This document shows positions 8,097-45,809 of a stretch of DNA of 64,000 bases, one piece after another; within the stretch, counting starts at the first letter, position 1, and each line of letters starts with the position of its first letter. Origin of the DNA: a virus; IMG/VR virus record IMGVR_UViG_3300032315_001604, positions 1 through 64,000 of that record; one strand, 5' to 3'. The notes beneath the pieces are model-generated. The model saw only the letters and a program-made list of their open reading frames with translations, was not told the DNA's origin and made no database searches. The translations under genes and the position numbers were made by a program.

Positions 8097-8708
8097 ATGT
8101 CTTATACGTTATATAGCGATTTATCTGTAAGTCCTTCAAATTCTAATGTAGGATACAACAATTCTTGGTTACACGTACAGAACAATGCAAACAGAGAATT
8201 GTTTGCACAAGCATCTTATATCACAAATTTTGATGATTTAACTATTTCACTATCTGCTGGAAATGTTGATATTGGAGCAGTTGAAATCAAAGATTGGAAT
8301 TCAAATATAAGAGCAGATGTCACAACATCTGATGGATTAAATGCATTACGAGTATTGACTCAAGATTTAGAATCATCGGTTGATGATATCACGATTGGTG
8401 ATAAAAATGGCAATTTTGCTACTATCCAAATGCCTCAATCCGCATTGAGAGTTTATCCCGTTATCACTGCTGGTGGATTTACAAGATGTGAAACAAGAAC
8501 TTCTGGTAACCCAACTTTTGTACCATGCCAAATTTTAATATACAATAGCGCGAATACACATGTCTTTCCAGTATTAACTTTATCAAGTGGGTTATCGTGT
8601 CGAATACCGATTGGTAAAAATAGTGAAAATAACCATATTTTAACATTAAATTTGGAAGTGTCTGGTGTTAATGATTATGCAGGATGCGAAATCACATTCT
8701 TTGCTTAA
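8097..8708 (+). CDS. Hypothetical virion-associated protein, paralog of 9441-9878
   Basis: Shared NVxYxNxW...RxLFAQASYxTN motif; TAAGTA late-type box upstream. Confidence 0.6.
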   Translation: MSYTLYSDLSVSPSNSNVGYNNSWLHVQNNANRELFAQASYITNFDDLTISLSAGNVDIGAVEIKDWNSNIRADVTTSDGLNALRVLTQDLESSVDDITIGDKNGNFATIQMPQSALRVYPVITAGGFTRCETRTSGNPTFVPCQILIYNSANTHVFPVLTLSSGLSCRIPIGKNSENNHILTLNLEVSGVNDYAGCEITFFA

Positions 8709-8710
8709 TT

Positions 8711-9376
8711 ATGATTCTCTGTTTATCAGATATTCATTTAGGAAGTCCGATATGTCAGGCAGAATTGACATTAAAAATATTAGAAGATTGCGAGTACGAT
8801 AAACTTATAATTTGTGGAGATATTTTAGATTCTTATAATATCCACAGGCTTTGTAAAAAACAATGGAAAGTTTTATCTGCATTGAGAAAAATTTCTAAAA
8901 CCAAAGAATGTATTTTTATTAAAGGAAATCACGATAAAAGTTTAGATACAATCAGTGCATTGCTAGGATTTGATTTTAAATTAGAACACATTGAAACAAT
9001 TGGTGGTAAAAAGTTTTACTTTGTTCATGGAGATAAATGGGATTATATAATTCAATTAAGACCATTCCTAACAGAAATAGCATCTGGAATTTATTATTTT
9101 TTACAAAAAATAGACAAGACCCAAAAGTTTACAAGAAAATTAAAAAAGAAAATTAAAACTTGGAGATCTTCTGCTGATAAAGTTATGGAAAGAGTAGCTA
9201 ATCACGGAAAATTTTTAGATTGTGATGTTGTTGTTTTTGGTCATACTCACATGCCAGAGCATAAAAACGTCAATGGAATAGAATGTGTTAATTTAGGTTC
9301 TCAGTGTGATCTACCAGTTACATACTGTAAAATAAGTAATAAAGGTAACATAACATTAAAAAGTTTGGATAAATAA
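8711..9376 (+). CDS. LpxH-like (UDP-2,3-diacylglucosamine hydrolase family) metallophosphoesterase
   Basis: SDIHLG, GDILD, GNHD, HGD, GHTH. Confidence 0.75.
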   Translation: MILCLSDIHLGSPICQAELTLKILEDCEYDKLIICGDILDSYNIHRLCKKQWKVLSALRKISKTKECIFIKGNHDKSLDTISALLGFDFKLEHIETIGGKKFYFVHGDKWDYIIQLRPFLTEIASGIYYFLQKIDKTQKFTRKLKKKIKTWRSSADKVMERVANHGKFLDCDVVVFGHTHMPEHKNVNGIECVNLGSQCDLPVTYCKISNKGNITLKSLDK

Positions 9377-9440: not shown

Positions 9441-9878
9441 TTGTTGATGGCCACACTCACACCAACTTTAACTTCAGTAGTTCCAAATCCAAATGTTGCT
9501 TATTGTAATGCATGGATTCCAATATCTAATGACGCTGGTAGGCCGCTTTTTGCCCAAGCATCGTATTTAACAAATGCCTCTGATATTTCTGTTTCTTTAT
9601 CTGCTAGTAATTTAAATATAAATTTAGCAGATGTTGAAAATTTAATTGCAACAACAAATACTCTTGTCGGTGTTCTTACCGCTACATCAAACCGTATTAA
9701 CGGTTTTGTAATTCCTAATTATAACAGAATCGCAAATACCTATTATGGGACTTCAAACAATTTATCTAAGGTAGATTATAAGTTTAATAGTACTATAGTA
9801 GCTTCTTTATCATTTACATATACGACACCTACTTCTGCTGATGGTGCTTTACTTGCTGAAGTAATAAAGACTCTCTAA
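9441..9878 (+). CDS. Hypothetical virion-associated protein (fibre adaptor candidate)
   Basis: Paralog of 8097-8708; directly precedes LRR genes. Confidence 0.55.
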   Translation: MLMATLTPTLTSVVPNPNVAYCNAWIPISNDAGRPLFAQASYLTNASDISVSLSASNLNINLADVENLIATTNTLVGVLTATSNRINGFVIPNYNRIANTYYGTSNNLSKVDYKFNSTIVASLSFTYTTPTSADGALLAEVIKTL

Positions 9879-9882
9879 ATTT

Positions 9883-11028
9883 ATGCCCTATACCTTTAAT
9901 CCGTTTACTGGTGGATTAGATGGAGCAGGTGCAGGTGGGCTTGCAGATGCTCCTTCTGATGGAGTTCTTCGTGCTCGAAAGAACGGATCTTGGTCTACTA
10001 TTGATGCAGCAGATATTCCCAGCTTACCTGCTAATGGTCTTGATATGACTTTAATAGAAGCAACAGATGGCTTGTATGGATACATAGGAGATATAGGAGT
10101 TAATCAGTTTGTTGGGGATACCTCTTTAACGGGTTTGTATCTGGGAAATAGTGTTACAAGTATTGGAAATCAGGCTTTTTATGAGTGCTCTGGTCTTATT
10201 GGTTCTTTAACTATACCAAATAGTGTTACTAGTATTGGTAGTCTGGCTTTTCAAAGTTGCTCTGGTTTTACTGGTTCTTTAACTATTCCAAATAGTGTTA
10301 CAAGTATTGGTAGTAGTGCTTTCTATAATTGCTCTGGTTTTACAGGCTCCTTAACTATCCCTAATAGTGTTACTAGTATTGGTAGTCTGGCTTTTTATGA
10401 TTGCAGTGGTTTCACAGGTTCTTTGACTATAGGAACTAGTGTTTCAAGTATTAATGATGGTGCTTTTGAAAGTTGCAATGGGTTTACAGGCTCCCTCACC
10501 ATTCCGGGAACAGCTTCAATCGGAAGCTTTGCGTTTTATGCTTGCAGCTTTAATGGCTTAAATGTAACTGGAACTTCTATAAATTCTAATGCTTTTGAAT
10601 ATAATAAAACAAATGCTTTTGGATCATTGAATATTGCTAATACCATTACAAGTATTGGAAATCAGGCTTTTTATGAGTGCTCTGGTCTTATTGGTTCTTT
10701 AACTATACCAAATAGCATTACAAGTATTGGTAGTTATGCTTTTGATAGTTGCTCTGGTTTTACTGGTTCTTTAACTATACCAAATAGCATTACAAGTATC
10801 GGAGGTAGTGCTTTTAGAAATTGCTTTAACTTAACAAATGCTTATTTGAATCAGCCCTTGTCTGCAATAGGTTCCAATGCTTTTCAAAATTCAGGTCTTA
10901 CCACAATTCACCTTCAACCATCCCCCAACACTCCTGCGGGTTGGACCATAGGTTCTGGGCAAACAATACGTGGTAAATCTGGAATTACCGTGGTAGCAAA
11001 TTGGACAACCCATCCTAATCCTCCGTAA
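9883..11028 (+). CDS. BspA-type leucine-rich repeat (LRR_5) fibre-like protein 1
   Basis: About 11 GSLTIPNSVTSIGxxAFxxCSGFT repeats; N-terminal MPYTFNPFTG and DAPSDG motifs. Confidence 0.85.
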   Translation: MPYTFNPFTGGLDGAGAGGLADAPSDGVLRARKNGSWSTIDAADIPSLPANGLDMTLIEATDGLYGYIGDIGVNQFVGDTSLTGLYLGNSVTSIGNQAFYECSGLIGSLTIPNSVTSIGSLAFQSCSGFTGSLTIPNSVTSIGSSAFYNCSGFTGSLTIPNSVTSIGSLAFYDCSGFTGSLTIGTSVSSINDGAFESCNGFTGSLTIPGTASIGSFAFYACSFNGLNVTGTSINSNAFEYNKTNAFGSLNIANTITSIGNQAFYECSGLIGSLTIPNSITSIGSYAFDSCSGFTGSLTIPNSITSIGGSAFRNCFNLTNAYLNQPLSAIGSNAFQNSGLTTIHLQPSPNTPAGWTIGSGQTIRGKSGITVVANWTTHPNPP

Positions 11029-11036
11029 ATAATATT

Positions 11037-12260
11037 ATGCCATACAAATTTAATCCATTTACAGGTAGTTTAGATACAGCAGGTTCAGGAGGTATTCCAG
11101 AAGCTCCTGCTGATGGCAATCTCTATGACAGAAAGAGTGGTCAATGGGTTCAACCTGAAGCATCAGATGTTACAGACTTTCCTACAAATTTTGCAGACCA
11201 TACTTTTATTACCACTAATGATGATCCCAGTAAAGTTATCATGACTTATGGAAGTATTGGTAGTAGTGCTTATAATTATAGAACAGATTTAACAGGTCTT
11301 TATTTAGGAAGCTCTGTAACAAGTATTGGAAGTAATGCTTTTCAAGGTTGCGGTGGTTTTACTGGTTCTTTAACCATACCAAATAGTGTTACAAGTATTG
11401 GTAGTGATGCTTTTAGAAGTTGCTCTGGATTTACTGGTTCTTTAACCATAGGAAGCGGTGTTACAAGTATTGGTAGTTCTGCTTTTTATCAAACTAGTTT
11501 AACAGGATCTTTAACCATTCCCAATAATGTTACAAGTATTGGAAGTTATGCATTTTATCAAAATGAAGGTTTTACAGGTACATTGACTTTATCAAATAGC
11601 CTGACAAGTATTCAACAGTCAACTTTTAAGAGTTCTAGTTTTACAGGCTCTTTGACTATACCTAATAGTGTAACAAGTATTAATGATGGTGCTTTCTATA
11701 GTTGCACTGGCTTTACTGGTTCTTTAACTATTCCAAATAGCGTTACAAATATTGGTAATCAGGCTTTTGCTTATTGCACTGGCTTTACTGATTCTTTAAC
11801 TCTTGGTAATACCATTACAAGTATTGGAAGTCAGGCTTTTTATGAGTGCGACTTTTCAGGTTCTCTAATTATTCCGAATAGTGTTACAACTATTGGAAGT
11901 CAGGCTTTTTATGACTGCAACTTTTCAGGTTCTCTAATTATTCCGAATAGTGTTACAACTATTGGGAGTTATGCTTTTGCTTATTGCTACGGTATTGGAA
12001 GTTCTCTAACTATTCCAAATAGTGCTACGAGTATTGGTGATCGTGCTTTTCTTGCATGTGAAAGCGTAATAGATGCTTATTTGAATCAGCCTCTGTCTGC
12101 ATTTAATAATACTTTTCAAGCCTCAAATCTTACTACAGTTCACCTCAGACCATCTCCTAATACTCCTGCGGGTTGGACTATAGGTTCAGAGCAAACAATA
12201 GTCGGGCAAGACGATGTTAATGTAGTGGCAGATTGGACAACATATCCAAATCCCCCTTGA
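11037..12260 (+). CDS. BspA-type LRR fibre-like protein 2
   Basis: About 12 repeats; MPYKFNPFTG and EAPADG motifs; shared C-cap. Confidence 0.85.
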   Translation: MPYKFNPFTGSLDTAGSGGIPEAPADGNLYDRKSGQWVQPEASDVTDFPTNFADHTFITTNDDPSKVIMTYGSIGSSAYNYRTDLTGLYLGSSVTSIGSNAFQGCGGFTGSLTIPNSVTSIGSDAFRSCSGFTGSLTIGSGVTSIGSSAFYQTSLTGSLTIPNNVTSIGSYAFYQNEGFTGTLTLSNSLTSIQQSTFKSSSFTGSLTIPNSVTSINDGAFYSCTGFTGSLTIPNSVTNIGNQAFAYCTGFTDSLTLGNTITSIGSQAFYECDFSGSLIIPNSVTTIGSQAFYDCNFSGSLIIPNSVTTIGSYAFAYCYGIGSSLTIPNSATSIGDRAFLACESVIDAYLNQPLSAFNNTFQASNLTTVHLRPSPNTPAGWTIGSEQTIVGQDDVNVVADWTTYPNPP

Positions 12261-12290
12261 TTTATTTCTCCCAAGATATAAAATAATAAT

Positions 12291-13088
12291 ATGTCTAAAA
12301 CAGTTCATTTTGTATCAGGTCTTCCAAGAGCCACTAGCACTCTTCTCTGCAACCTATTAGCACAGAACCCAAGAGTTCATGCAACAGCAACATCCCCTTT
12401 GCATGAGATTGGTTATATTGCAAGGAAAGTATTTCAAACTGAAGAAGCAAAAGCGATTGGTGGTGATGTGCTTGAGACTATGTTTAAGGATTATGTCAAA
12501 GGTGGGGTCGAAAATGCTTTTAATTCATTGACAGATAGACCTGTTGTAGCCGATAAATGCAGATCATATATTGGTCACTTGGATATGATCTTTCAAATCT
12601 TTCCTGATGCTAAAGTTCTTGTTCCAGTAAGAGATGTAAGAGGCATTCTTTGCTCCATGGAAAAAATCAGAAGAAAGCATCCAGCACCTTTTAATGGCTT
12701 CGAAGAACAAAATCCAGCTAACTTTACTACAATTGAAAAAAGAGCGCAGGGATGGCTTCAACATCCACCTGTTGGCATTGCTATTGAAAGATTGTTTGAA
12801 GCAACAGCAAGATTTAAAGACAAGCTTCACTTTGTTCATTCAGAAGACTTAACATCAAACCCTAAAGAAACTATGCAAAAGGTTTGGGAATATCTTGAAG
12901 AAGATTTCGATAAACATGACTTTAATAATGTAGAACAATATACTAAAGAAGTAGAAGTGGGTTGGCCTTATGGTGATCATTCTATTAGACCTCAAATTAA
13001 ACCATTACCTATGGATTATGATAAGATTCTTGGAAAACAGCTATCAGATGCTATAAAGCAGAAGTTTGCTTGGATAAATAATTTATAA
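12291..13088 (+). CDS. Sulfotransferase family protein
   Basis: 5-prime PAPS-binding loop SGLPRATSTLL; VPVRDVRGILCS second motif. Confidence 0.75.
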   Translation: MSKTVHFVSGLPRATSTLLCNLLAQNPRVHATATSPLHEIGYIARKVFQTEEAKAIGGDVLETMFKDYVKGGVENAFNSLTDRPVVADKCRSYIGHLDMIFQIFPDAKVLVPVRDVRGILCSMEKIRRKHPAPFNGFEEQNPANFTTIEKRAQGWLQHPPVGIAIERLFEATARFKDKLHFVHSEDLTSNPKETMQKVWEYLEEDFDKHDFNNVEQYTKEVEVGWPYGDHSIRPQIKPLPMDYDKILGKQLSDAIKQKFAWINNL

Positions 13089-13555
13089 TGAAATACGCAA
13101 TATTAGGACCAAGAAAAGCAGTTAATAGAATCTCTGATACAGAACCACAAACATTATCAAGTTTAAGTGCTACTGTTGTAGAGTTTACAGATGAACAAGC
13201 ACATACTGTATTAGCAGGTTTATCAGCAACACCATCAACTCGTTATTTTTATCTCAGCGGAAATTTAATTACATTTAAAGATAAGTTTGAACAAGATAGA
13301 TCAACTCCTACATTAACCCAAGAACAGACCATCAAAAGAGGTGAAATGTTTGTTCAGAATAAAGGATTTTCAGCACAGAGGCTTGTTACATTAATGGACA
13401 AGTTGATTCAAGTTAAAGAAGCTAATGCTTTAGCTTCAAACCCAAAGCTTGTTGCTGTATATCAATGGCTCCAAGAAGTAAAAGCGAAAGCGATTGCTAC
13501 GCAAATTAATTTTTCAGAACCACCTTATACATTCGAAGAAGTCATAACCGAATAA
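13088..13555 (+). CDS. Hypothetical protein, possible fibre assembly chaperone
   Basis: Position between fibre-like genes; inference only. Confidence 0.45.
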   Translation: MKYAILGPRKAVNRISDTEPQTLSSLSATVVEFTDEQAHTVLAGLSATPSTRYFYLSGNLITFKDKFEQDRSTPTLTQEQTIKRGEMFVQNKGFSAQRLVTLMDKLIQVKEANALASNPKLVAVYQWLQEVKAKAIATQINFSEPPYTFEEVITE

Positions 13556-13563
13556 GTATTTAC

Positions 13564-15342
13564 ATGGCCTATTCCTTCAATCCGTTTACAGGTAGTTTAG
13601 ATGATTCTGGAGGAACATCTGGTATTGTAGATGCACCTTCTGATGGAGGCTTGTATGGTCGGGGAACTTTTGATACTAGTGGAGTCTCCTTACTGCTTCA
13701 CATGGATGGATCATCTGGATCTCAAAACTTCATTGACAGTTCTTTAAATAATTTCACAGTAACTAATAATGGAGGTGCTCAAATTGATACAGCATTCAAG
13801 AAGTTTGGAACAGGTTCTAGTTATTTTAATTATGGTGACAGTACATATTTGCAAACTGAGTCTTCTTCGGAATTTGGTTTGGGTACTGGGAATTTTACTG
13901 TTGAAATGTGGCTATACAAAGATACTGCAATATTAAACTTTAATGGGTTTTTTTGCATAAATCAGTACAATAATAATGGTATTTTAATTAGAATACAGTC
14001 AGCTTTTGATTCTCTTTATGTTGGTGGAGAAACTTATAATTGGGATCCTAGCACCAACTTTCCATTAAATCAATGGAATCATTTTGCCCTAGTAAGAAAT
14101 AATGGAGTAATAAAAATTTATATTAATGGCATTGCAGTTTTTACTGCAAATAATAATAATAACAATTTAGGATCTACAGGCATAGTCACTGTTGGTGCAA
14201 GTTCTCACAATTATAATGAAGGGTTTGGTGGTTATATTGATGAAGTAAGAGTTGCCAAAGGTGTTGCAAGATACATGGCAAACTTTGATGTGCCTACTGT
14301 GCCTTTTTCTAATCCTGCATATCCTGCTCCAAGTTGGAGTAATCACACCAAGGAAGACATACTCAACAATGAATCTGGTCCTCCTTTAACTCTCCTTATC
14401 AATTCTGATAATACTATTACAGGGGTTTATGGAAGTATTGGTTATCAGGCATATACTGGCCAAGATCAATTGTTAGGATTACAAATAGGTACAAGTGTTA
14501 TAACTGTTGGTAGTGGAGCCTTTGAGTATTGCTCTGGTCTTACTGGCTCTTTAACTATACCAAATAGTGTTACAGATATTGGTAATGGAGCTTTTGGTGG
14601 TTGCACTGGTTTTACAGGTTCTTTAACAATACCAAATAGTGTTACAAATATTGGTAGTTTTGCTTTTTATCAATGCTCTGGTTTTACAGGTTCTTTAACT
14701 ATTCCTAATTCTGTTACGAGTATTGGTAATAATGCTTTTAGAAATTGCAACGGATTTACAAATTCTTTAGCCATACCAAATAGTGTTACAAGTATTGGTA
14801 GTGATGCTTTTATAGATTGCTCTGGTTTTACAGGCTCCTTAACTATCCCTAATAGTGTTACTAGTATTGGTAGTCTGGCTTTTGAAAATTGTACTGGCCT
14901 AACAAACGCTTATTTAAATCAGCCACTATCTGCGGTTGGATCTAATGCTTTCATTAGTTCAGGACTCACTACAATTCACCTTCAACCATCCCCCAACACT
15001 CCTGCGGGTTGGACCATAGGTTCTGGGCAAACAATACGTGGTAAATCTGGAATTACTGTAGTAGCTGATTGGACTGAATATCCAGTTGGTACTTGCAATG
15101 ATGCAACTGCACAAGTTCTTATGACAGGTTGGGTTTATGGAGATAGAACATTATCCCCAATTGGATATTTTCCGTTTGGAGGAGAAACCTATGTTTATGG
15201 GGATGAAGTTGTAAGATATGTAGATGGTGTTTGGATCTATGAAAACAGTGGATTAGAAATAACAAGGGCTTATGGTTATGTGGGACGCCCTTGGCTGGCT
15301 ACTTGGGATTCTCCTTTTACATCAAGTAAAATATGTCCATAA
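13564..15342 (+). CDS. LamG/ConA-like + BspA LRR fibre-like protein 3
   Basis: MAYSFNPFTG; LLLHMDG...FTVEMW...WNHFALVR...GYIDEVRV (LamG-like); about 8 LRRs; extra C-terminal domain. Confidence 0.85.
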   Translation: MAYSFNPFTGSLDDSGGTSGIVDAPSDGGLYGRGTFDTSGVSLLLHMDGSSGSQNFIDSSLNNFTVTNNGGAQIDTAFKKFGTGSSYFNYGDSTYLQTESSSEFGLGTGNFTVEMWLYKDTAILNFNGFFCINQYNNNGILIRIQSAFDSLYVGGETYNWDPSTNFPLNQWNHFALVRNNGVIKIYINGIAVFTANNNNNNLGSTGIVTVGASSHNYNEGFGGYIDEVRVAKGVARYMANFDVPTVPFSNPAYPAPSWSNHTKEDILNNESGPPLTLLINSDNTITGVYGSIGYQAYTGQDQLLGLQIGTSVITVGSGAFEYCSGLTGSLTIPNSVTDIGNGAFGGCTGFTGSLTIPNSVTNIGSFAFYQCSGFTGSLTIPNSVTSIGNNAFRNCNGFTNSLAIPNSVTSIGSDAFIDCSGFTGSLTIPNSVTSIGSLAFENCTGLTNAYLNQPLSAVGSNAFISSGLTTIHLQPSPNTPAGWTIGSGQTIRGKSGITVVADWTEYPVGTCNDATAQVLMTGWVYGDRTLSPIGYFPFGGETYVYGDEVVRYVDGVWIYENSGLEITRAYGYVGRPWLATWDSPFTSSKICP

Positions 15343-15438: not shown

Positions 15439-16272
15439 ATGTTTATTACAATTTTAGCTTTATCAGCGTTTATTATTGCTGGTGTGGCCGCTTATTTTTC
15501 AGTTCAAGGTATTGCCACATTATATGCAGGGGCTTTTATTTCTGTGTTGGTCATGGCTGGTGCATTAGAAGTTGGAAAACTTGTTGCTACAAGTTTTCTT
15601 TATCGATACTGGCACAAGACCAATTTATTACTAAAAACCTATATATTAATTGCCATTCTTACTTTAATGGGAATTACATCAATGGGTATATTCGGATTTT
15701 TGACATCTGCATATCAAACAAGTCTTATTGAATTTTCTCAAGCAGAAACTCAACAAGAATTTTTGATATCGCAAAAAGCGATACTAGAAAAAGAATTAGC
15801 ATCTTTGACGATGCGTGTTGATACTCTTAATCAATCTCGCCTCTCTCAAGAACAAAGACTTCCATCAATGTCTCGCACAGCAGCAAAACCTGTATATGAA
15901 GATATTAAAAAGTCTGGTGAAGAAATTACACAAGCTAGAGGAAGAATGAATACAATTTTTGAAGAAATTAAAACTCTGGATTTACAAACACTAGAAGCAC
16001 AAAAGCAAAGCGGAAAACAAAAAGATATTGGAACTCTCAAATATGCAGCAGAACTTTTTGGAACAGATATCAACACCATTGTTAAATGGTTTACTTTAGC
16101 AATTATTGTCGTGTTTGACCCATTAGCTATTGCATTGGTTCTTGCATATAATATTGCTGCTAATAGAAAGTTTGATGATGAAGAAGAATATGTAGAGGAA
16201 CCTGAAAATGAAACATCTACCATAAAAACAATTAAAAAAATTTTTAGTAGAAAAGCTAAGTATAGAGACTAA
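15439..16272 (+). CDS. Membrane protein with 3 N-terminal helices, coiled coil and C-terminal helix
   Basis: Hydrophobic segments, GALEVGKLV, VVFDPLAIALV. Confidence 0.65.
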   Translation: MFITILALSAFIIAGVAAYFSVQGIATLYAGAFISVLVMAGALEVGKLVATSFLYRYWHKTNLLLKTYILIAILTLMGITSMGIFGFLTSAYQTSLIEFSQAETQQEFLISQKAILEKELASLTMRVDTLNQSRLSQEQRLPSMSRTAAKPVYEDIKKSGEEITQARGRMNTIFEEIKTLDLQTLEAQKQSGKQKDIGTLKYAAELFGTDINTIVKWFTLAIIVVFDPLAIALVLAYNIAANRKFDDEEEYVEEPENETSTIKTIKKIFSRKAKYRD

Positions 16273-16931: not shown

Positions 16932-18113
16932 TTATTCAACCTTCAAGGTTTTACCCAATGAATTGATTGTGGCTTTTTTATTCGTAACCTTAATCAATTC
17001 AACACCTGTGCTATTTTCTGAATAATTGACAATACAAAATCCGTTTTGCCAATTTGCACCTTTAACATAGGTAGGATTCAATTTACAAGCGCATCCGATT
17101 TCATGGTTCTCAACAATTTCCATTGGACGAGATCCAATCTTTGGAATGGTTTGATATGTCGATCCCAAACGATGAGTATGGCTTGTGATTGTTGAGGCAA
17201 AATGTTTTTCAAAATTACCTCTAGCAGAGAAGCCACCATGCTTACGAACAATATCACCATGATACACGAAAACGTTATTTGGTAGCTCGACTAATGAATC
17301 CATATCATCAGTAGCATCTACCAAACGAATTCGGGACCATTCTTCTTGGGGATGAAAAACTTTTGTATATGAGAGATTCTCTGCGATTTGTGGAAGCTCT
17401 AATAGTTGTTTGATATCATCACTAGCAGAAATATATCTCCACCAACGACCTTCGATACCATTACCAGAATGATTTCCATTCGTTTCAAGAATCTCTGCTT
17501 TGAATGGCTCTGTAATATCATGAAGAATTTTGAGAAATTTATGATAAGCTTCAATTTCATCATTAATACTATGGGTATGTCTAGGATCTTTAGAATACTT
17601 GCTAATAGAAAGAAGATCGACAGTATCGCCATTAAGAATAATTCTTTCTGGTTTCATTTCTTCAACAGCCTGAAGAAAGATGTTGATCGTATCCCAACAC
17701 TCAAAACCGAAGTGAGTGTCACCAATAATCATTGTTGATTTGTTGGCAACCGAATAGGTTTTAGGTTTTACTGGAGCAGGATATTGAATATATTTAACAT
17801 TTTCCAAAAACTCTTTCAATCGCTCTTGGTGAAAATCATTCTTAGTCATTCCTGCCAAATATGGAGCATCGAAAGATTCTGTTGTTTCTTCTTCGGTAAT
17901 AATGTTAATAGGGTTATCATTCTCATCGAAAGAATTTTGAACCGTAGTTTTTACAATTGTAGTATTACGGCGGCGATCTGTAACCCAATCATGAATTGTT
18001 GATCTTGGAACTCCCAAGAGTTCTGAAATTTCTGTTTTGGTTTTGCCTTTTCCATGAAGCTGTAAAACTTTTTTACGCTTTATGTTTCTATCCAAGTTAA
18101 TATTCATGCTCAT
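16932..18113 (-). CDS. HTH + calcineurin-like metallophosphoesterase
   Basis: N-terminal HTH (EISELLGVPRSTIHDW); GDTH, GDTVD, GNH, HGD, HTH motifs. Confidence 0.8.
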   Translation of the reverse strand: MSMNINLDRNIKRKKVLQLHGKGKTKTEISELLGVPRSTIHDWVTDRRRNTTIVKTTVQNSFDENDNPINIITEEETTESFDAPYLAGMTKNDFHQERLKEFLENVKYIQYPAPVKPKTYSVANKSTMIIGDTHFGFECWDTINIFLQAVEEMKPERIILNGDTVDLLSISKYSKDPRHTHSINDEIEAYHKFLKILHDITEPFKAEILETNGNHSGNGIEGRWWRYISASDDIKQLLELPQIAENLSYTKVFHPQEEWSRIRLVDATDDMDSLVELPNNVFVYHGDIVRKHGGFSARGNFEKHFASTITSHTHRLGSTYQTIPKIGSRPMEIVENHEIGCACKLNPTYVKGANWQNGFCIVNYSENSTGVELIKVTNKKATINSLGKTLKVE

Positions 18114-29111: not shown

Positions 29112-29625
29112 TAGTAGAAATGATCTGTTTAGTCTTTTAAATGGATCCGAAAATATTGGAATAGAATTAGGAGTAGCAAAGGGAAGATACTCAAAAACAA
29201 TGGTTGATTCTGGAAAGTTTTCCAAAGTATACGGAGTAGATCGTTATACGGATCATCACGATTCAAAAGAATATATATCAGCAATATCTTATATTGGTTT
29301 AGATAAACCTTATGTATTAATTCGTTCTACTTTTGATGAGGCATTAACTTTGTTTGAAGATGGATATTTTGATTTTATATATGTCGATGGTTATGCTCAC
29401 ACTGGACAAGAAGAAGGAAAAACTTTGTATTCTTGGTATAGAAAACTAAAAAAGAATGGCGTTTTTGCTGGTCATGATTATCATGAAAAATGGCATTTGA
29501 CTAAAAAATCAGTAGATGATTTTGTTGCTGAAAACAATTTAACTTTAAACATAACTTCCGAAGAAAACGATGAAAAAAACTGTTTGTATCCATCGTGGTA
29601 TGTGCTAAAGTATTTTTATGATTAA
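29104..29625 (+). CDS. Class I SAM-dependent methyltransferase (Methyltransf_24-like)
   Basis: IELGVAKG, GVDRY, FDFIYVDG, AGHDY. Confidence 0.85.
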   Translation: MINSRNDLFSLLNGSENIGIELGVAKGRYSKTMVDSGKFSKVYGVDRYTDHHDSKEYISAISYIGLDKPYVLIRSTFDEALTLFEDGYFDFIYVDGYAHTGQEEGKTLYSWYRKLKKNGVFAGHDYHEKWHLTKKSVDDFVAENNLTLNITSEENDEKNCLYPSWYVLKYFYD

Positions 29626-30631
29626 ACACGTTGATGTTATCGTCGGTCTTGCTTGGGGGGATGAAGGCAAGGGTAAAATCTCAAGTGCAATGGCGAAAGA
29701 CTATGATATGGTCTGTCGTTGGAATGGTGGACCAAATGCTGGTCATACTGTTTATTTGGATGGTAAAAAATATAAAACTCATCTGATTCCTTCTGGTGTT
29801 TTTCATGGAAAGAAATCTGTTATTGGTCCAAACTGTGTTTTGAATATCGATAAATTTCTCAAAGAAATTGAATATTTAAAACAAAATGGTTTTGATACAT
29901 CTTTGGTCAAAGTTCATCCAAATGTTCATGTGATTACAGATGCACACATTGAATATGATTTAAAACATTTGAAACCCAAACTTGGAACTACTGGTCAAGG
30001 TATTGCTCCTTGCTATGCAGATAAAGCAAATCGTGTTGGTATTCAAATTAGAAATATGAGTTTTGCTCCTTTGAAAGATTTTATTTGGGATGGAAAATTA
30101 GAAGGAAAAATTCTTTGTGAAGGTGCTCAAAGTATCTGGTTGGATATCAATTATGGCGATTATCCTTATGTTACAAGTTCTGAAACATTTCCTCACAATG
30201 CTTGTTCGCTAGGATTTTCTCCCAAGAAAATTCGTGACATTATCGGCGTGGCAAAAATTTACGATACCAAAAGTGGTGTCGATCCTCTGTTTCCAGAATG
30301 TCTTTGGAATGATGCAAGACTCAATCAACTAATTGAACTTGGGGGAGAGTTTGGATCTACGACAGGTAGAAAGCGAATTGTAAATTGGTTAAACTTTGGA
30401 AGATTAAACAATGCTATTAATCTTTCAGGTTCAACCAAAGTAATCATCAATAAATGTGATGTGTTTGAAAAGGTTGGAATCTTCAGAATCAATAATTTTC
30501 ATGAAACATCTTTGGAAACAAATTCTTTTGATCAACTAAAAGATATCATTAAGAAGTCTTTGGTAAATCAAAACATCAACGGATTAAAGCCAAACAATAT
30601 TATTTTCTCTGGTGATCAGACGCATATTTAA
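29618..30631 (+). CDS. purA: Adenylosuccinate synthetase (short form)
   Basis: WGDEGKGK, GGPNAGHT, GTTGQGI, EGAQ, YPYVTSS, GSTTGRKR. Confidence 0.92.
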   Translation: MIKHVDVIVGLAWGDEGKGKISSAMAKDYDMVCRWNGGPNAGHTVYLDGKKYKTHLIPSGVFHGKKSVIGPNCVLNIDKFLKEIEYLKQNGFDTSLVKVHPNVHVITDAHIEYDLKHLKPKLGTTGQGIAPCYADKANRVGIQIRNMSFAPLKDFIWDGKLEGKILCEGAQSIWLDINYGDYPYVTSSETFPHNACSLGFSPKKIRDIIGVAKIYDTKSGVDPLFPECLWNDARLNQLIELGGEFGSTTGRKRIVNWLNFGRLNNAINLSGSTKVIINKCDVFEKVGIFRINNFHETSLETNSFDQLKDIIKKSLVNQNINGLKPNNIIFSGDQTHI

Positions 30632-44512: not shown

Positions 44513-44737
44513 ATGATTTACGGATTTAATATAACCGAAGAATATGCTTTAAGTTTTGGTCTTTTTTATAAAGTTCGAAATTTTAAAGATGGCATTACAT
44601 TTTTTGAATTTTTGCTTAATTTAAATCTTTATAAAGCAGATCACAATCCACAGATTCGATTAAATTTGGTTATATTTAATTTTACTATTTTTGACATTAC
44701 GTTATATAACGTAAGGCACTATGACTCTTATCTGTGA
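44513..44737 (+). CDS. Hypothetical protein
   Basis: ORF packing. Confidence 0.45.
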   Translation: MIYGFNITEEYALSFGLFYKVRNFKDGITFFEFLLNLNLYKADHNPQIRLNLVIFNFTIFDITLYNVRHYDSYL

Positions 44738-45809
44738 TAAACCATCTGTTGATGATGGGTTTGGTATATACGAACATGACTTTTGTGGTATACCTGCTTA
44801 TTTGATTATTCCTGCTATTGATGCAAAATGGAATAAAAATAATTTAAACTACAGATCCTTAATTATAAGCAAAGAGAATTCCGAAGTTCTTTCTAGTGGC
44901 TGGCCTAAATTTTTTAATTGTGGCGAAAAACCAGATTGCTATCCAGATCCAAACAAATATGATGATTGGAACATACAAGAAAAACTTGATGGTTCTTTAT
45001 TGATTGCAGATTATGTTAATGGAAAATTTAATATGCGAACTCGCGGAACAGCTTCGTATATAACCCAAAACAATTTTTCTGATTTTGAGCTTTTAAAGGA
45101 TTATCATTCAGACATTGTTTCTTTTTTAGAAGAAAATAGTCATCTGTCTTTGCTTTTAGAAATTATTACTCCAAATAATATTATTGTTATTAGAACGCCA
45201 ATGGTTCAATTTTATTTGCTTGGTGCAATCGATAAAACGACTTTAAACCCTTTGCCTTTAAAAAAAGTTGAAGAAATTTCTCAAGAATTAAAAATTCCTA
45301 CTCCTGAAGTATTTTCTTTTGAAAATTTAGAAGAAACTATTAAAACAGTCAAAGAGTGGAAAGGAAAAGAGGGTATTGTTATTTCATATAACGACAATCA
45401 AAATCGAATTAAAATTAAATCAGATTGGTATTGTTGGATTCATAAAATTAAATCTAAATTAAATTCCGAATCAAACTTAATTGAATTTTATGTAAACGAA
45501 GGTCTTCCATCATATAAAAAATTTTATGATATTATAAAAAACAATTTTGATTGGGAACTTGCCGAACAAATGACAAATGAAATTTCTAAAATGGTAGATT
45601 GTGGAAAAAAAGTCAAAAAAATTATTAAAGGAATGGATAGGTTTATTGATACAATTAAACACTATCCTACAAGAAAAAAACAAGCTCAACAAATAATGTC
45701 TTCGTATGGCAGCAATCAAAATAATACGTCAGGAATGCTTTTTAATTTATTAGATGGTAAAAATTTAACCAAAGAACAACTGATCAAACTAATGCATCAA
45801 AATTTATGA
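44721..45809 (+). CDS. T4 Rnl1-like RNA ligase
   Basis: KFFN, EKLDGSL, TRG, LEII, EGIVI, RIKIKS. Confidence 0.85.
   Translation: MTLICDKPSVDDGFGIYEHDFCGIPAYLIIPAIDAKWNKNNLNYRSLIISKENSEVLSSGWPKFFNCGEKPDCYPDPNKYDDWNIQEKLDGSLLIADYVNGKFNMRTRGTASYITQNNFSDFELLKDYHSDIVSFLEENSHLSLLLEIITPNNIIVIRTPMVQFYLLGAIDKTTLNPLPLKKVEEISQELKIPTPEVFSFENLEETIKTVKEWKGKEGIVISYNDNQNRIKIKSDWYCWIHKIKSKLNSESNLIEFYVNEGLPSYKKFYDIIKNNFDWELAEQMTNEISKMVDCGKKVKKIIKGMDRFIDTIKHYPTRKKQAQQIMSSYGSNQNNTSGMLFNLLDGKNLTKEQLIKLMHQNL

Follow-up and report, generated by a model that had tools for sequence, protein, structure and literature searches.

Proteins of the TpLRR/BspA type (Pfam LRR_5) have been described as surface proteins of bacteria and protists that carry secretion or anchoring domains, and their solved members include 4fs7, 4gt6, 4fdw, 4h09, PcpA (4cp6) and TpLRR (6mlx). 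Their repeats follow the consensus LxxLxLxxxLxxIgxxAFxxC, with ‘x’ positions in the variable segment (PMC2946307). LRR scaffolds are also found in the VLRs of jawless vertebrates, where a fixed framework displays variable exposed residues and cassettes are joined via short homology. Among phages, mosaic fibres and multi-receptor-binding-protein systems (T-even gp37/38, lambdoid side fibres, CBA120-type branched sets) combine an N-terminal anchor with a swapped distal part, bring several paralogous binders together in one genome and show recombination-driven mosaicism. The targets of diversity-generating retroelements (DGRs), such as Mtd of Bordetella phage, are receptor-binding proteins in which variation is focused on a stable scaffold. 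Our literature searches returned nothing relevant on LRR or BspA phage fibres.

We have examined three LRR genes, g1, g2 and g3, in the record IMGVR_UViG_3300032315_001604, which derives from an uncultured marine T4-like phage (myovirus), measures 195 kb and is 92% complete; the window analysed is the 64,000-nt stretch comprising positions 1-64,000 of this record. These genes probably encode paralogous receptor-binding fibres of modular build, which homologous recombination diversifies, with a sulfotransferase as partner. The three-gene cluster lies outside the main structural block, at a distance from the genes for sheath and baseplate, and is organized as follows.

9441-9878, + strand: ORF of 145 aa directly 5′ of g1, possibly fibre-associated
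9883-11028, + strand: g1, putative LRR fibre paralogue, 381 aa (ORF list, Pfam LRR_5)
9883-9921, + strand: g1 N-peptide
9925-10002, + strand: g1 foldon-like unit
10132-10836, + strand: g1 LRR_5 array of ~10 modules, irregular in its middle part
10837-11025, + strand: g1 C-terminal cap
11037-12260, + strand: g2, putative LRR fibre paralogue, 407 aa (ORF list, Pfam LRR_5, AF2)
11037-11075, + strand: g2 N-peptide
11079-11156, + strand: g2 foldon-like unit
11295-12074, + strand: g2 LRR_5 array of 11-12 modules, four of them 23-mers
12075-12257, + strand: g2 cap
12291-13088, + strand: sulfotransferase (Sulfotransfer_3) of 265 aa between g2 and g3 (Pfam, profile against PDB, synteny)
13088-13555, + strand: ORF of 155 aa between the sulfotransferase and g3, its start overlapping the sulfotransferase stop
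13564-15342, + strand: g3, putative LRR fibre paralogue, 592 aa (ORF list, Pfam LRR_5)
13564-13602, + strand: g3 N-peptide
13609-13677, + strand: g3 degenerate foldon-like unit, in which F replaces W
13834-14256, + strand: g3 Laminin_G_3/ConA-like domain
14476-14904, + strand: g3 LRR_5 array of six modules
14905-15081, + strand: g3 cap
15082-15339, + strand: g3 C-terminal extension of 86 aa

Both small ORFs have counterparts in a Tara relative: the 155-aa ORF is 88% identical there and gave zero family matches, and the 145-aa ORF, of which there is a paralogue at 8097-8708, occupies the same place (67% identical). Searches of Pfam and the ESM Atlas returned no match for the g3 C-terminal extension or the neighbouring small ORFs. 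The T4 late-promoter motif TATAAATA was not enriched and was absent 5′ of the fibre genes, and a generic promoter and terminator scan gave counts at shuffle level.

An initial sequence-only reading had proposed three fibre-like LRR genes with about 31 modules, and this count was borne out, since the three ORFs contain ~30-33 modules: 11 in g1, 12-13 in g2 and 7-8 in g3, ranges that depend on whether cap modules are counted. All three proteins matched BspA-type LRR_5 (PF13306) with E-values of 6e-70 (g1), 7e-94 (g2) and 4e-38 (g3) and scores of 233, 311 and 131 bits, above the gathering score of 27.7. The 25 modules that we tabulated are repeats of 23-25 residues fitting LxxLxLxxxLxxIgxxAFxx(C/N)xx. 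The AF2 model of g2 reached a pLDDT of 85-97 across the array, although the N-terminal 52 residues were modelled poorly in the monomer (pLDDT <50). Its best Foldseek matches were 4gt6, 4fs7, 4cp6, 4fdw and 4h09 (probability 1.0), with 6mlx further down (E 1.2e-3). The g3 model, built from a 3-sequence alignment, had a mean pLDDT of 49 and was therefore left out of the fold search. The phage arrays thus share with TpLRR/BspA proteins the repeat length (23-24 residues), the consensus, the fold and the variable x positions near A-F, but they stand behind a putative docking peptide and a foldon-like unit and end in a phage-type cap. Homologues are scarce among GenBank phages: 12 of 50,697 records matched the fibres, all uncultured and unannotated, and no cultured-phage counterpart was found in that set. 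A nucleotide search of the same records with the fibre region and 20 kb of the window gave no match.

The common N-terminus M(P/A)YxFNPFTGxLD and the (D/E)APxDG motif, both pointed out from the sequence, are present in all three genes and, within the 195-kb record, the FNPFTG and (D/E)APxDG motifs occur in these genes only. The 13-residue N-peptide also starts ~50 metagenomic ORFs with unrelated distal parts. When the distal parts of ten of these ORFs were tested, five (L043, L074, L045, L058 and L060) matched PHROG ‘tail fiber protein’ or ‘tail protein’ families and a sixth (L084) gave a weak PHROG tail-family match. A profile of the three N-termini against PDB aligned residues ~15-40 with the foldon 1v1h (E 1.2e-5) and with many foldon fusions, covering the I-P-E-A-P-R-D-G-Q-A-Y-V-R-K-D-G-E-W-V core. 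The foldon motifs P-x-D-G, Y-x-R and G-x-W are complete in g1 and g2, and g3 lacks the Trp. Judged by this profile match, the (D/E)APxDG motif marks a unit resembling the foldon of T4 fibritin, one per chain and conforming to G-x-I-P-E/D-A-P-x-D-G-x-x-Y-x-R-K-x-G-x-W-V; it differs from the fibritin foldon in being N-terminal instead of C-terminal, in having no preceding coiled coil and in being degenerate in g3. Related foldon-type units form long tandem arrays in >2000 other proteins. The tail-fibre matches and the foldon match are both consistent with the suggestion that the three proteins follow a common fibre design in which the N-peptide would dock on the virion. tblastn with the 72-aa N-terminus gave no match, and nothing relevant on the FNPFTG peptide was found in the literature. 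Two further matches link the genes to virion parts: one homologue of the LRR array and cap (P0002) is fused to a T4 gp9/10-type N-terminus, and the lectin domain of g3 hits PHROGs of the baseplate wedge and of virion structure.

Per-position amino-acid entropy confirmed that the module scaffold is fixed and that the residues flanking A-F vary. Entropy was high at module positions 14, 17, 18 and 20 only, and intermediate at position 13, all of which flank the invariant A-F, whereas strand positions 1-5 (G/S-L-T-I-P; canonical concave strand GSLTIP) were near-invariant, with 0-1.5 bits. Placed by sequence register and DSSP rather than by solvent-exposure calculations, the variable residues fall on those positions of the TpLRR variable segment that the consensus leaves as x, so that ‘ligand-face’ hypervariability in the VLR sense is not supported. 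Indeed, variation in VLRs lies on the concave β-sheet, and concave-strand residues are variable in the TpLRR/BspA consensus too, whereas they are near-fixed (G-S-L-T-I-P) in the phage arrays. The scaffold positions showed a pN of 0.12 against a pS of 0.48, and the variable positions a pN of 0.65 against a pS of 0.44. In orthologous modules, the pN/pS of the variable positions was ~1.1-1.6, a value inseparable from 1 because it rests on ~20 synonymous sites. Variable positions are therefore far less constrained than the scaffold and, in these data, indistinguishable from neutral change, which does not support selection. Tyr was enriched 6-9-fold at these positions, and Ser, Asn, Asp and Gly were enriched too, giving a binding-site-like composition.

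The exact DNA blocks of 86, 70 and 68 nt noticed in the initial reading were recovered almost to the base.

10903-10988 = 14971-15056, + strand: 86-nt conversion tract, g1 C-cap identical to g3 C-cap (exact identity, permutation test)
10154-10223 = 10646-10715, + strand: 70-nt block within g1, in the first module of each array half (exact identity)
10328-10395 = 14816-14883, + strand: 68-nt block shared by g1 and g3 (exact identity)

Further exact blocks measured 46 nt (within g2) and 42 nt. When the modules were shuffled by codon column 1000 times, the longest in-register exact run never exceeded 47 nt, with 41 nt as the 99th percentile, and in the C-terminal cap g1 and g3 match at each of 22 polymorphic sites in a row, which none of 20,000 permutations reproduced. 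The exact blocks are thus longer than chance would give and represent tracts of conversion or duplication, which supports the proposed exchange and duplication of DNA both among the genes and inside them. Comparison with relatives gave the same picture. The N-parts of orthologues, which define orthology, are 90-92% identical, whereas LRR arrays and caps are 68-75% identical between orthologues as against 67-85% between paralogues in this genome. Module numbers also differ from those of the orthologues: 11 against 6 and 5 for g1, 12 against 5 for g2 and 7 against 12 for g3. Two pairs of proteins, P0008/P0271 and P0019/P0272, are 100% identical save for clean indels of 23 and 48 aa, that is, one or two modules; short-read assembly taking a shortcut through repeats of at least 54 nt could also have produced these indels. 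No relative emerged when viral contigs were scanned with g3. Related phages have arrays of unequal module number and differing content rather than invariant ones, and hence the idea of a repertoire stands on this point. Unlike in described mosaic fibres, the binding part would here be an LRR solenoid that lengthens or shortens in steps of whole modules.

The sulfotransferase between g2 and g3 matched PF13469 (Sulfotransfer_3) with an E-value of 1.7e-17, and S-G-L-P and V-R-D-x-R-G..S are invariant among five homologues. Profile searches against PDB gave protein-tyrosine sulfotransferases as its closest solved relatives; it aligns to TPST1 across the PAPS-binding region (G-x-P-R-x-x-S/T-T-L, V-R-D-x-R; 24 bits, E 1.8e-4). 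The phage enzyme thus has the Sulfotransfer_3 domain and PAPS-binding motifs of TPST1/2, but it is cytoplasmic and phage-encoded, and the match amounts to just 24 bits. The family is almost exclusively viral. In 54 of 80 viral loci a canonical LRR_5 gene ends 0-700 nt upstream of the sulfotransferase gene, in a further 13 a divergent LRR_5 gene ends 0-43 nt upstream, and nine have no upstream sequence; the same linkage is present in L007, L009, L011 and four MAG contigs. Essentially all of the ~70 viral contigs with upstream sequence therefore carry the sulfotransferase directly downstream of an LRR_5 fibre gene. Most likely, the enzyme would sulfate the fibre before assembly. We also considered Tyr enrichment as a sulfotransferase-linked trait and rejected it, since database homologues of the same subfamily are similarly enriched. 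The literature held nothing relevant on phage fibre sulfation.

The three proteins might have a role other than host-receptor binding, either as head, neck or collar adhesins or decoration proteins (like Hoc or the fibritin whiskers) or outside the virion, in which case particles, mucus-like polymers or other surfaces would be the targets of the arrays and drift the source of their variation. T4 fibritin, the protein known to bear the foldon, is a collar whisker and not a receptor-binding fibre; bacterial BspA-type LRR proteins serve broadly as surface adhesins (NCBIfam HupY/LrrG and Gli349 matches), and the genes do stand apart from the main structural block. We nevertheless regard such a role as rather unlikely, because the N-peptide is common to proteins with tail-fibre-family distal parts, an LRR/cap homologue bears a gp9/10 baseplate-type N-terminus, and a conserved anchor followed by a swapped distal part is the classic receptor-binding-protein signature. 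It is less probable still that the hypervariability and the differences in repeat number are non-adaptive, arising from neutral change, tandem-repeat instability and, in part, assembly artefacts. The pN/pS of the variable positions would fit this explanation, as would the fact that these positions are ‘x’ in the family consensus (PMC2946307) and vary in an identical pattern in 1366 modules of database homologues. Arguing against it, at least three related phages have kept all three paralogues intact and their anchors and caps conserved, and the variable positions are enriched in Tyr and the other residues typical of a binding-site-like composition.

At the other extreme, the arrays might be actively reshuffled during infection by VLR-like copy choice, a DGR or an invertase shufflon. 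The cassette-like modules with exact homology blocks of 20-86 nt and the clean module indels between otherwise identical proteins are what such a process could leave. However, VLR assembly is somatic and depends on AID-like deaminases, for which a match in a T4-like phage would be ambiguous because such phages carry a dCMP deaminase. In VLRs, an incomplete gene is filled from silent cassettes that number in the hundreds, whereas LRR_5 matches in the 195-kb record are confined to three complete ORFs, so that there are no silent donors, and an LRR_5 search of the record revealed neither silent cassettes nor an incomplete expressed gene. Profile searches of the record for DGR, invertase/shufflon and integrase mechanisms were all negative, with no match to reverse transcriptase (PF00078) or to serine and tyrosine site-specific recombinases (PF00239, PF00589). 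Compared with Mtd, the phage record lacks a template repeat as well as a reverse transcriptase, and the variation sits on an LRR scaffold in place of a C-type lectin fold. Furthermore, synonymous divergence is high between most modules (pS ~0.45), which indicates that most modules are old. A programmed VLR-, DGR- or shufflon-like mechanism is thus not supported, and we consider it very improbable. What stands of the likeness to VLRs is the analogy of scaffold and cassette-wise evolution, with change running over evolutionary rather than somatic time; programmed or somatic assembly and concave-face variation do not.

In receptor-binding fibres diversified by ordinary homologous recombination, which is the reading we favour, the 13-residue N-peptide would dock the fibre on the virion and one foldon-like β-hairpin unit would trimerise it, followed by a linker (in g3, a ConA-like lectin domain), a TpLRR/BspA solenoid of 6-12 modules and a conserved cap. 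Purifying selection holds the solenoid scaffold, and the five positions that flank the invariant A-F in each module, exposed and free to vary, would form a candidate specificity stripe. Recombination between 72-nt repeats, without a dedicated diversifying enzyme, would generate diversity as whole-module gain or loss, conversion tracts between paralogues and distal replacement behind the conserved anchor, and the adjacent sulfotransferase would be a conserved functional partner. A more far-reaching version is conceivable but doubtful: a widespread class of foldon-nucleated LRR-solenoid trimers, with a Tyr-rich stripe sulfated by the always-adjacent TPST-like enzyme and with fast whole-module recombination of length and specificity.

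Host recognition is obscure for most marine phages. The locus described here points to a new fibre architecture (putative docking peptide, foldon-like unit, TpLRR array and cap) that has no cultured or characterised example, whose array differs by whole modules among near-identical relatives and which is tied to a previously overlooked sulfotransferase partner. If the enzyme modifies the fibre, protein sulfation would join the means by which phages tune adsorption. Should the sulfated-trimer version be true, this would be the first post-translationally sulfated phage fibre and a viral counterpart, on an evolutionary time scale, of LRR-based adaptive receptors. Finally, the 13-residue N-peptide, which many otherwise unrelated fibres carry, is a candidate for a universal adaptor handle and would be a useful mark for annotating receptor-binding proteins in metagenomes.

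The three LRR genes proposed by the sequence-only reading were confirmed in their coordinates and counts, and all three encode strong LRR_5 (BspA-type) matches. The fibre locus is organized as follows:

9883-11028, + strand: g1, LRR protein of 381 aa
11037-12260, + strand: g2, LRR protein of 407 aa
12291-13088, + strand: sulfotransferase (Sulfotransfer_3, E 1.7e-17), between g2 and g3
13564-15342, + strand: g3, LRR protein of 592 aa

The shared or duplicated blocks of 86, ~68 and ~70 nt were recovered as exact identities: 86 nt (10903-10988 and 14971-15056), 70 nt (10154-10223 and 10646-10715) and 68 nt (10328-10395 and 14816-14883). When codon columns of 21 in-register modules were shuffled in 1000 trials, the longest exact run was at most 47 nt (99th percentile, 41 nt). 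Also, in the aligned C-terminal caps that follow the arrays, g1 and g3 agreed at 22 consecutive polymorphic sites, a run equalled in 0 of 20,000 permutations. Chance thus does not account for the exact blocks, which are tracts of conversion or recent duplication; this upholds the suggestion of module shuffling or gene conversion.

We tabulated 25 canonical modules for per-position statistics. Amino-acid entropy exceeded 2.3 bits solely at module positions 14, 17, 18 and 20; position 13 showed 1.65 bits and twelve scaffold positions less than 1 bit. Synonymous p-distance between modules was ~0.45-0.48 in scaffold and variable codons alike, whereas non-synonymous distance was 0.12 in scaffold codons versus 0.65 in variable codons. 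High synonymous distance combined with low scaffold non-synonymous distance indicates that most modules are old and that the scaffold is under purifying selection; judged by its codons, the LRR array is not merely the product of recent amplification. When modules of the phage were compared with the positionally orthologous ones of its Tara Oceans relative, variable positions gave pN 0.46 and pS 0.28-0.42, and scaffold positions pN 0.07-0.16 and pS 0.41-0.50. With ~20 synonymous sites, positive selection and lack of constraint would both fit the variable positions. These positions also varied in 1366 modules of database homologues and 437 of other phage fibres, and the variability pattern, on this comparison, is a property of the subfamily and not of the g1-g3 locus. 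In the other phage fibres, Tyr was enriched 6-9-fold at the variable positions (20-33% versus 3.5% overall); Ser, Asn, Asp and Gly were frequent there as well.

The modules of g1-g3 match the TpLRR class consensus, LxxLxLxxxLxxIgxxAFxx(C/N)xx (PMC2946307), plus one extra residue. An AF2 model of g2 showed pLDDT of 85-97 across the array, with positions 2-4 and 10-11 of the module in beta-strands. Its best structural matches were the solved LRR_5 proteins 4gt6, 4fs7, 4cp6, 4fdw and 4h09, with 6mlx lower (E 1.2e-3); the g3 model was of poor quality. Every test run placed g1-g3 in the LRR_5/TpLRR family. The concave sheet of LRR proteins, which is built from the first strand, is the usual ligand face and the place of hypervariability in variable lymphocyte receptors (VLRs). 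The first strand of the phage modules, G/S-L-T-I-P, is nearly invariant, and the variable residues sit in the variable segment, around A-F. Thus, the proposed hypervariability stands as variation around a fixed AF, but is not supported as ligand-face variability in the VLR sense. The spacing i, i+1, i+4, i+5, i+7 suggests a single exposed stripe of variable residues, on the convex side or the flank.

Rather than being invariant across strains, the arrays of relatives differed in module number and content. At the protein level, paralogue-specific N-terminal parts were kept in homologues from other metagenomes (90% identity between g1 and P0008, 92% between g2 and P0073), while module number was 11 in g1 versus 6 in P0008 and 5 in P0199 (the g1 orthologue of the Tara relative), 12 in g2 versus 5 in P0073, and 7 in g3 versus 12 in P0019. 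Array and cap identity was 68-75% between orthologues versus 67-75% between the paralogues of this genome (85% for the g1-g3 cap); that orthologues are no closer than paralogues is a signature of paralogue exchange or wholesale distal replacement. The last two modules of P0008 resemble the last two of g2. The cluster mates P0008 and P0271 are 100% identical apart from one clean 23-aa module indel, and P0019 and P0272 apart from a clean 48-aa indel, equal to two modules and flanked by an 18-aa direct repeat. Either modules are gained and lost faster than point substitutions accumulate, or short-read assembly skipped over repeats. The 195-kb record yielded no LRR_5 match outside the three complete genes g1-g3 and no reverse transcriptase, serine recombinase or tyrosine recombinase, and its gene content indicates no dedicated diversifying system. 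T4-type recombination serves replication in such phages and would be enough to explain the tracts and indels. Likeness to VLRs is limited to the LRR scaffold and cassette-wise change, and the VLR-like repertoire proposed earlier persists in these two respects only: two defining features of VLRs, donor cassettes and concave-face variability, were both sought in the phage genes and neither was found.

A profile of the three N-termini matched T4 fibritin foldon constructs (e.g. 1v1h, E 1.2e-5) across the core I-P-E-A-P-R-D-G-Q-A-Y-V-R-K-D-G-E-W-V, and also 8rk3, a DUF2793 fibre protein; the profile thus identifies (D/E)APxDG as a foldon-like unit. In an exhaustive profile search, >2000 proteins had this unit, many with tandem arrays of it. 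It is preceded by the 13-residue peptide M(P/A)YxFNPFTGxLD, which within the genome is confined to g1, g2 and g3 and which starts ~50 metagenomic ORFs with unrelated distal parts, including collagen-like and coiled-coil ends. Five of 10 such ORFs matched PHROG families named 'tail fiber protein' or 'tail protein', and one more matched weakly; the peptide may be a widely used virion-docking handle. A related LRR-plus-cap cassette lies behind another phage anchor, a T4 gp9/10-type N-terminus, in P0002, and others follow a K-R-I-K-D-L-type fibre N-terminus and then a foldon-like unit in P0024 and P0033. The GVMAG-M-3300023179-114 contigs L008, L010 and L012 encode three LRR_5 proteins that have 55-57% identity to g1 and a common N-terminus of their own, M-S-T-I-V-V-T-F-S-Q-D...; as these contigs are binned as a giant-virus MAG, the LRR subfamily is a paralogous set there too.

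Homologues of the sulfotransferase lie directly 3′ of an LRR fibre gene at loci L007 and L011, and ~600 nt 3′ at L009. Among the best 80 of 160 relatives in viral contigs (61-73% identical), a canonical LRR_5 ORF on the same strand ended 0-700 nt upstream in 54, mostly ≤70 nt, and a divergent Cys-less LRR_5 ORF ended 0-43 nt upstream in 13. Four had an LRR_5 ORF ≤4 kb away (~2.7-3.3 kb upstream in three cases and immediately downstream in one), and in 9 the contig had no upstream sequence. The upstream LRR_5 ORFs ranged from 160 to 1191 aa, with ≤26 modules. In 185,579 species genomes, matches were limited to 11 loci. Four close matches (53-55% identical, all on MAG contigs) were again 3′ of an LRR fibre gene, whereas distant ones in species genomes (32-40%) did not follow such a gene. 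By gene order, the sulfotransferase gene is part of the fibre system. Its best solved relatives were protein-tyrosine sulfotransferases (5-sequence profile: TPST1, E 1.8e-4; TPST2, ~0.07; cytosolic sulfotransferases, ~0.6), and the PAPS-binding motifs were invariant among the homologues in this profile. On the basis of this likeness and the fibre-gene linkage, we propose that the fibre is sulfated by this enzyme, with the Tyr-rich stripe as a possible site; Tyr enrichment at variable positions is not limited to sulfotransferase-linked genes. Many divergent sulfotransferase-linked LRR fibres (L089-L168) start M-A-N-I-T-V-S-S/T-x-V-D... and many end ...H-V-P-V-G-A-T-G-Y-G-T-T-Y-G-G-L-T-V-V-A-D-L. 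None in this set has the FNPFTG peptide or the foldon-like unit, so the LRR-plus-sulfotransferase cassette has been joined to several different anchors.

The IMG/VR record, of which the window makes up the first 64 kb, comprises 195,163 bp and is 92% complete (CheckV). It encodes a contractile-tail sheath, whose C-terminal half is 34-40% identical to cyanophage sheaths, a ribonucleotide reductase and the following ORF:

44721-45809, + strand: T4 RnlA/gp63-like protein (phrog_562, 'RNA ligase and tail fiber protein attachment catalyst', E 9.5e-38)

Taken together, the distant sheath, the reductase and the RnlA-like protein identify the virus, by gene content, as a distant T4-like myovirus. The T4 counterpart of the phrog_562 protein promotes attachment of fibres, and thus this ORF may bear on the mounting of the LRR fibres. 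The nearest DNA relative found was a Tara Oceans scaffold (L016, L017; flanking genes 77-85% identical), which makes the phage marine.

Other genes were also observed. A 337-aa ORF (29618-30631, +) matched phrog_1211 (E 5.9e-70), a family annotated as the PurZ-type relative of adenylosuccinate synthetase that serves 2-aminoadenine (Z-base) DNA; the genome could thus be a modified one. The fibre cluster lies between two calcineurin-like metallophosphoesterases (8684-9376, +; 16932-18113, -), the second with an N-terminal helix-turn-helix domain. ORFs 8097-8708 and 9441-9878 (both +, no family match) have a common 57-aa N-terminal domain (49% identical, E 2e-16); the latter is 67% identical in the Tara relative, where it is likewise directly 5′ of g1. 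The gene content of L016:1-2233, 5′ of the g1 orthologue, is unlike that of the window, and two of its ORFs have the N-terminal motif T-E-C-I-G-x-S-L-x-K-I-N-G-N-F, so that they may belong to a further set of paralogues sharing an anchor. Right 3′ of g3, a 277-aa ORF without family match (15439-16272, +) has a hydrophobic, multi-pass-looking N-terminal half and a Q/E/K-rich, coiled-coil-looking region.

Matches to g2 in 50,697 GenBank phage records numbered only 12, every one uncultured and unannotated; the PHROGs matching the LRR fibres are annotated 'unknown function', and we found no literature on these proteins. Overall, the putative fibres g1-g3 would work like mosaic phage receptor-binding fibres, and their interest is raised by the N-terminal position of the foldon-like unit, by the evidence of module indels and by the conserved pairing with a sulfotransferase.
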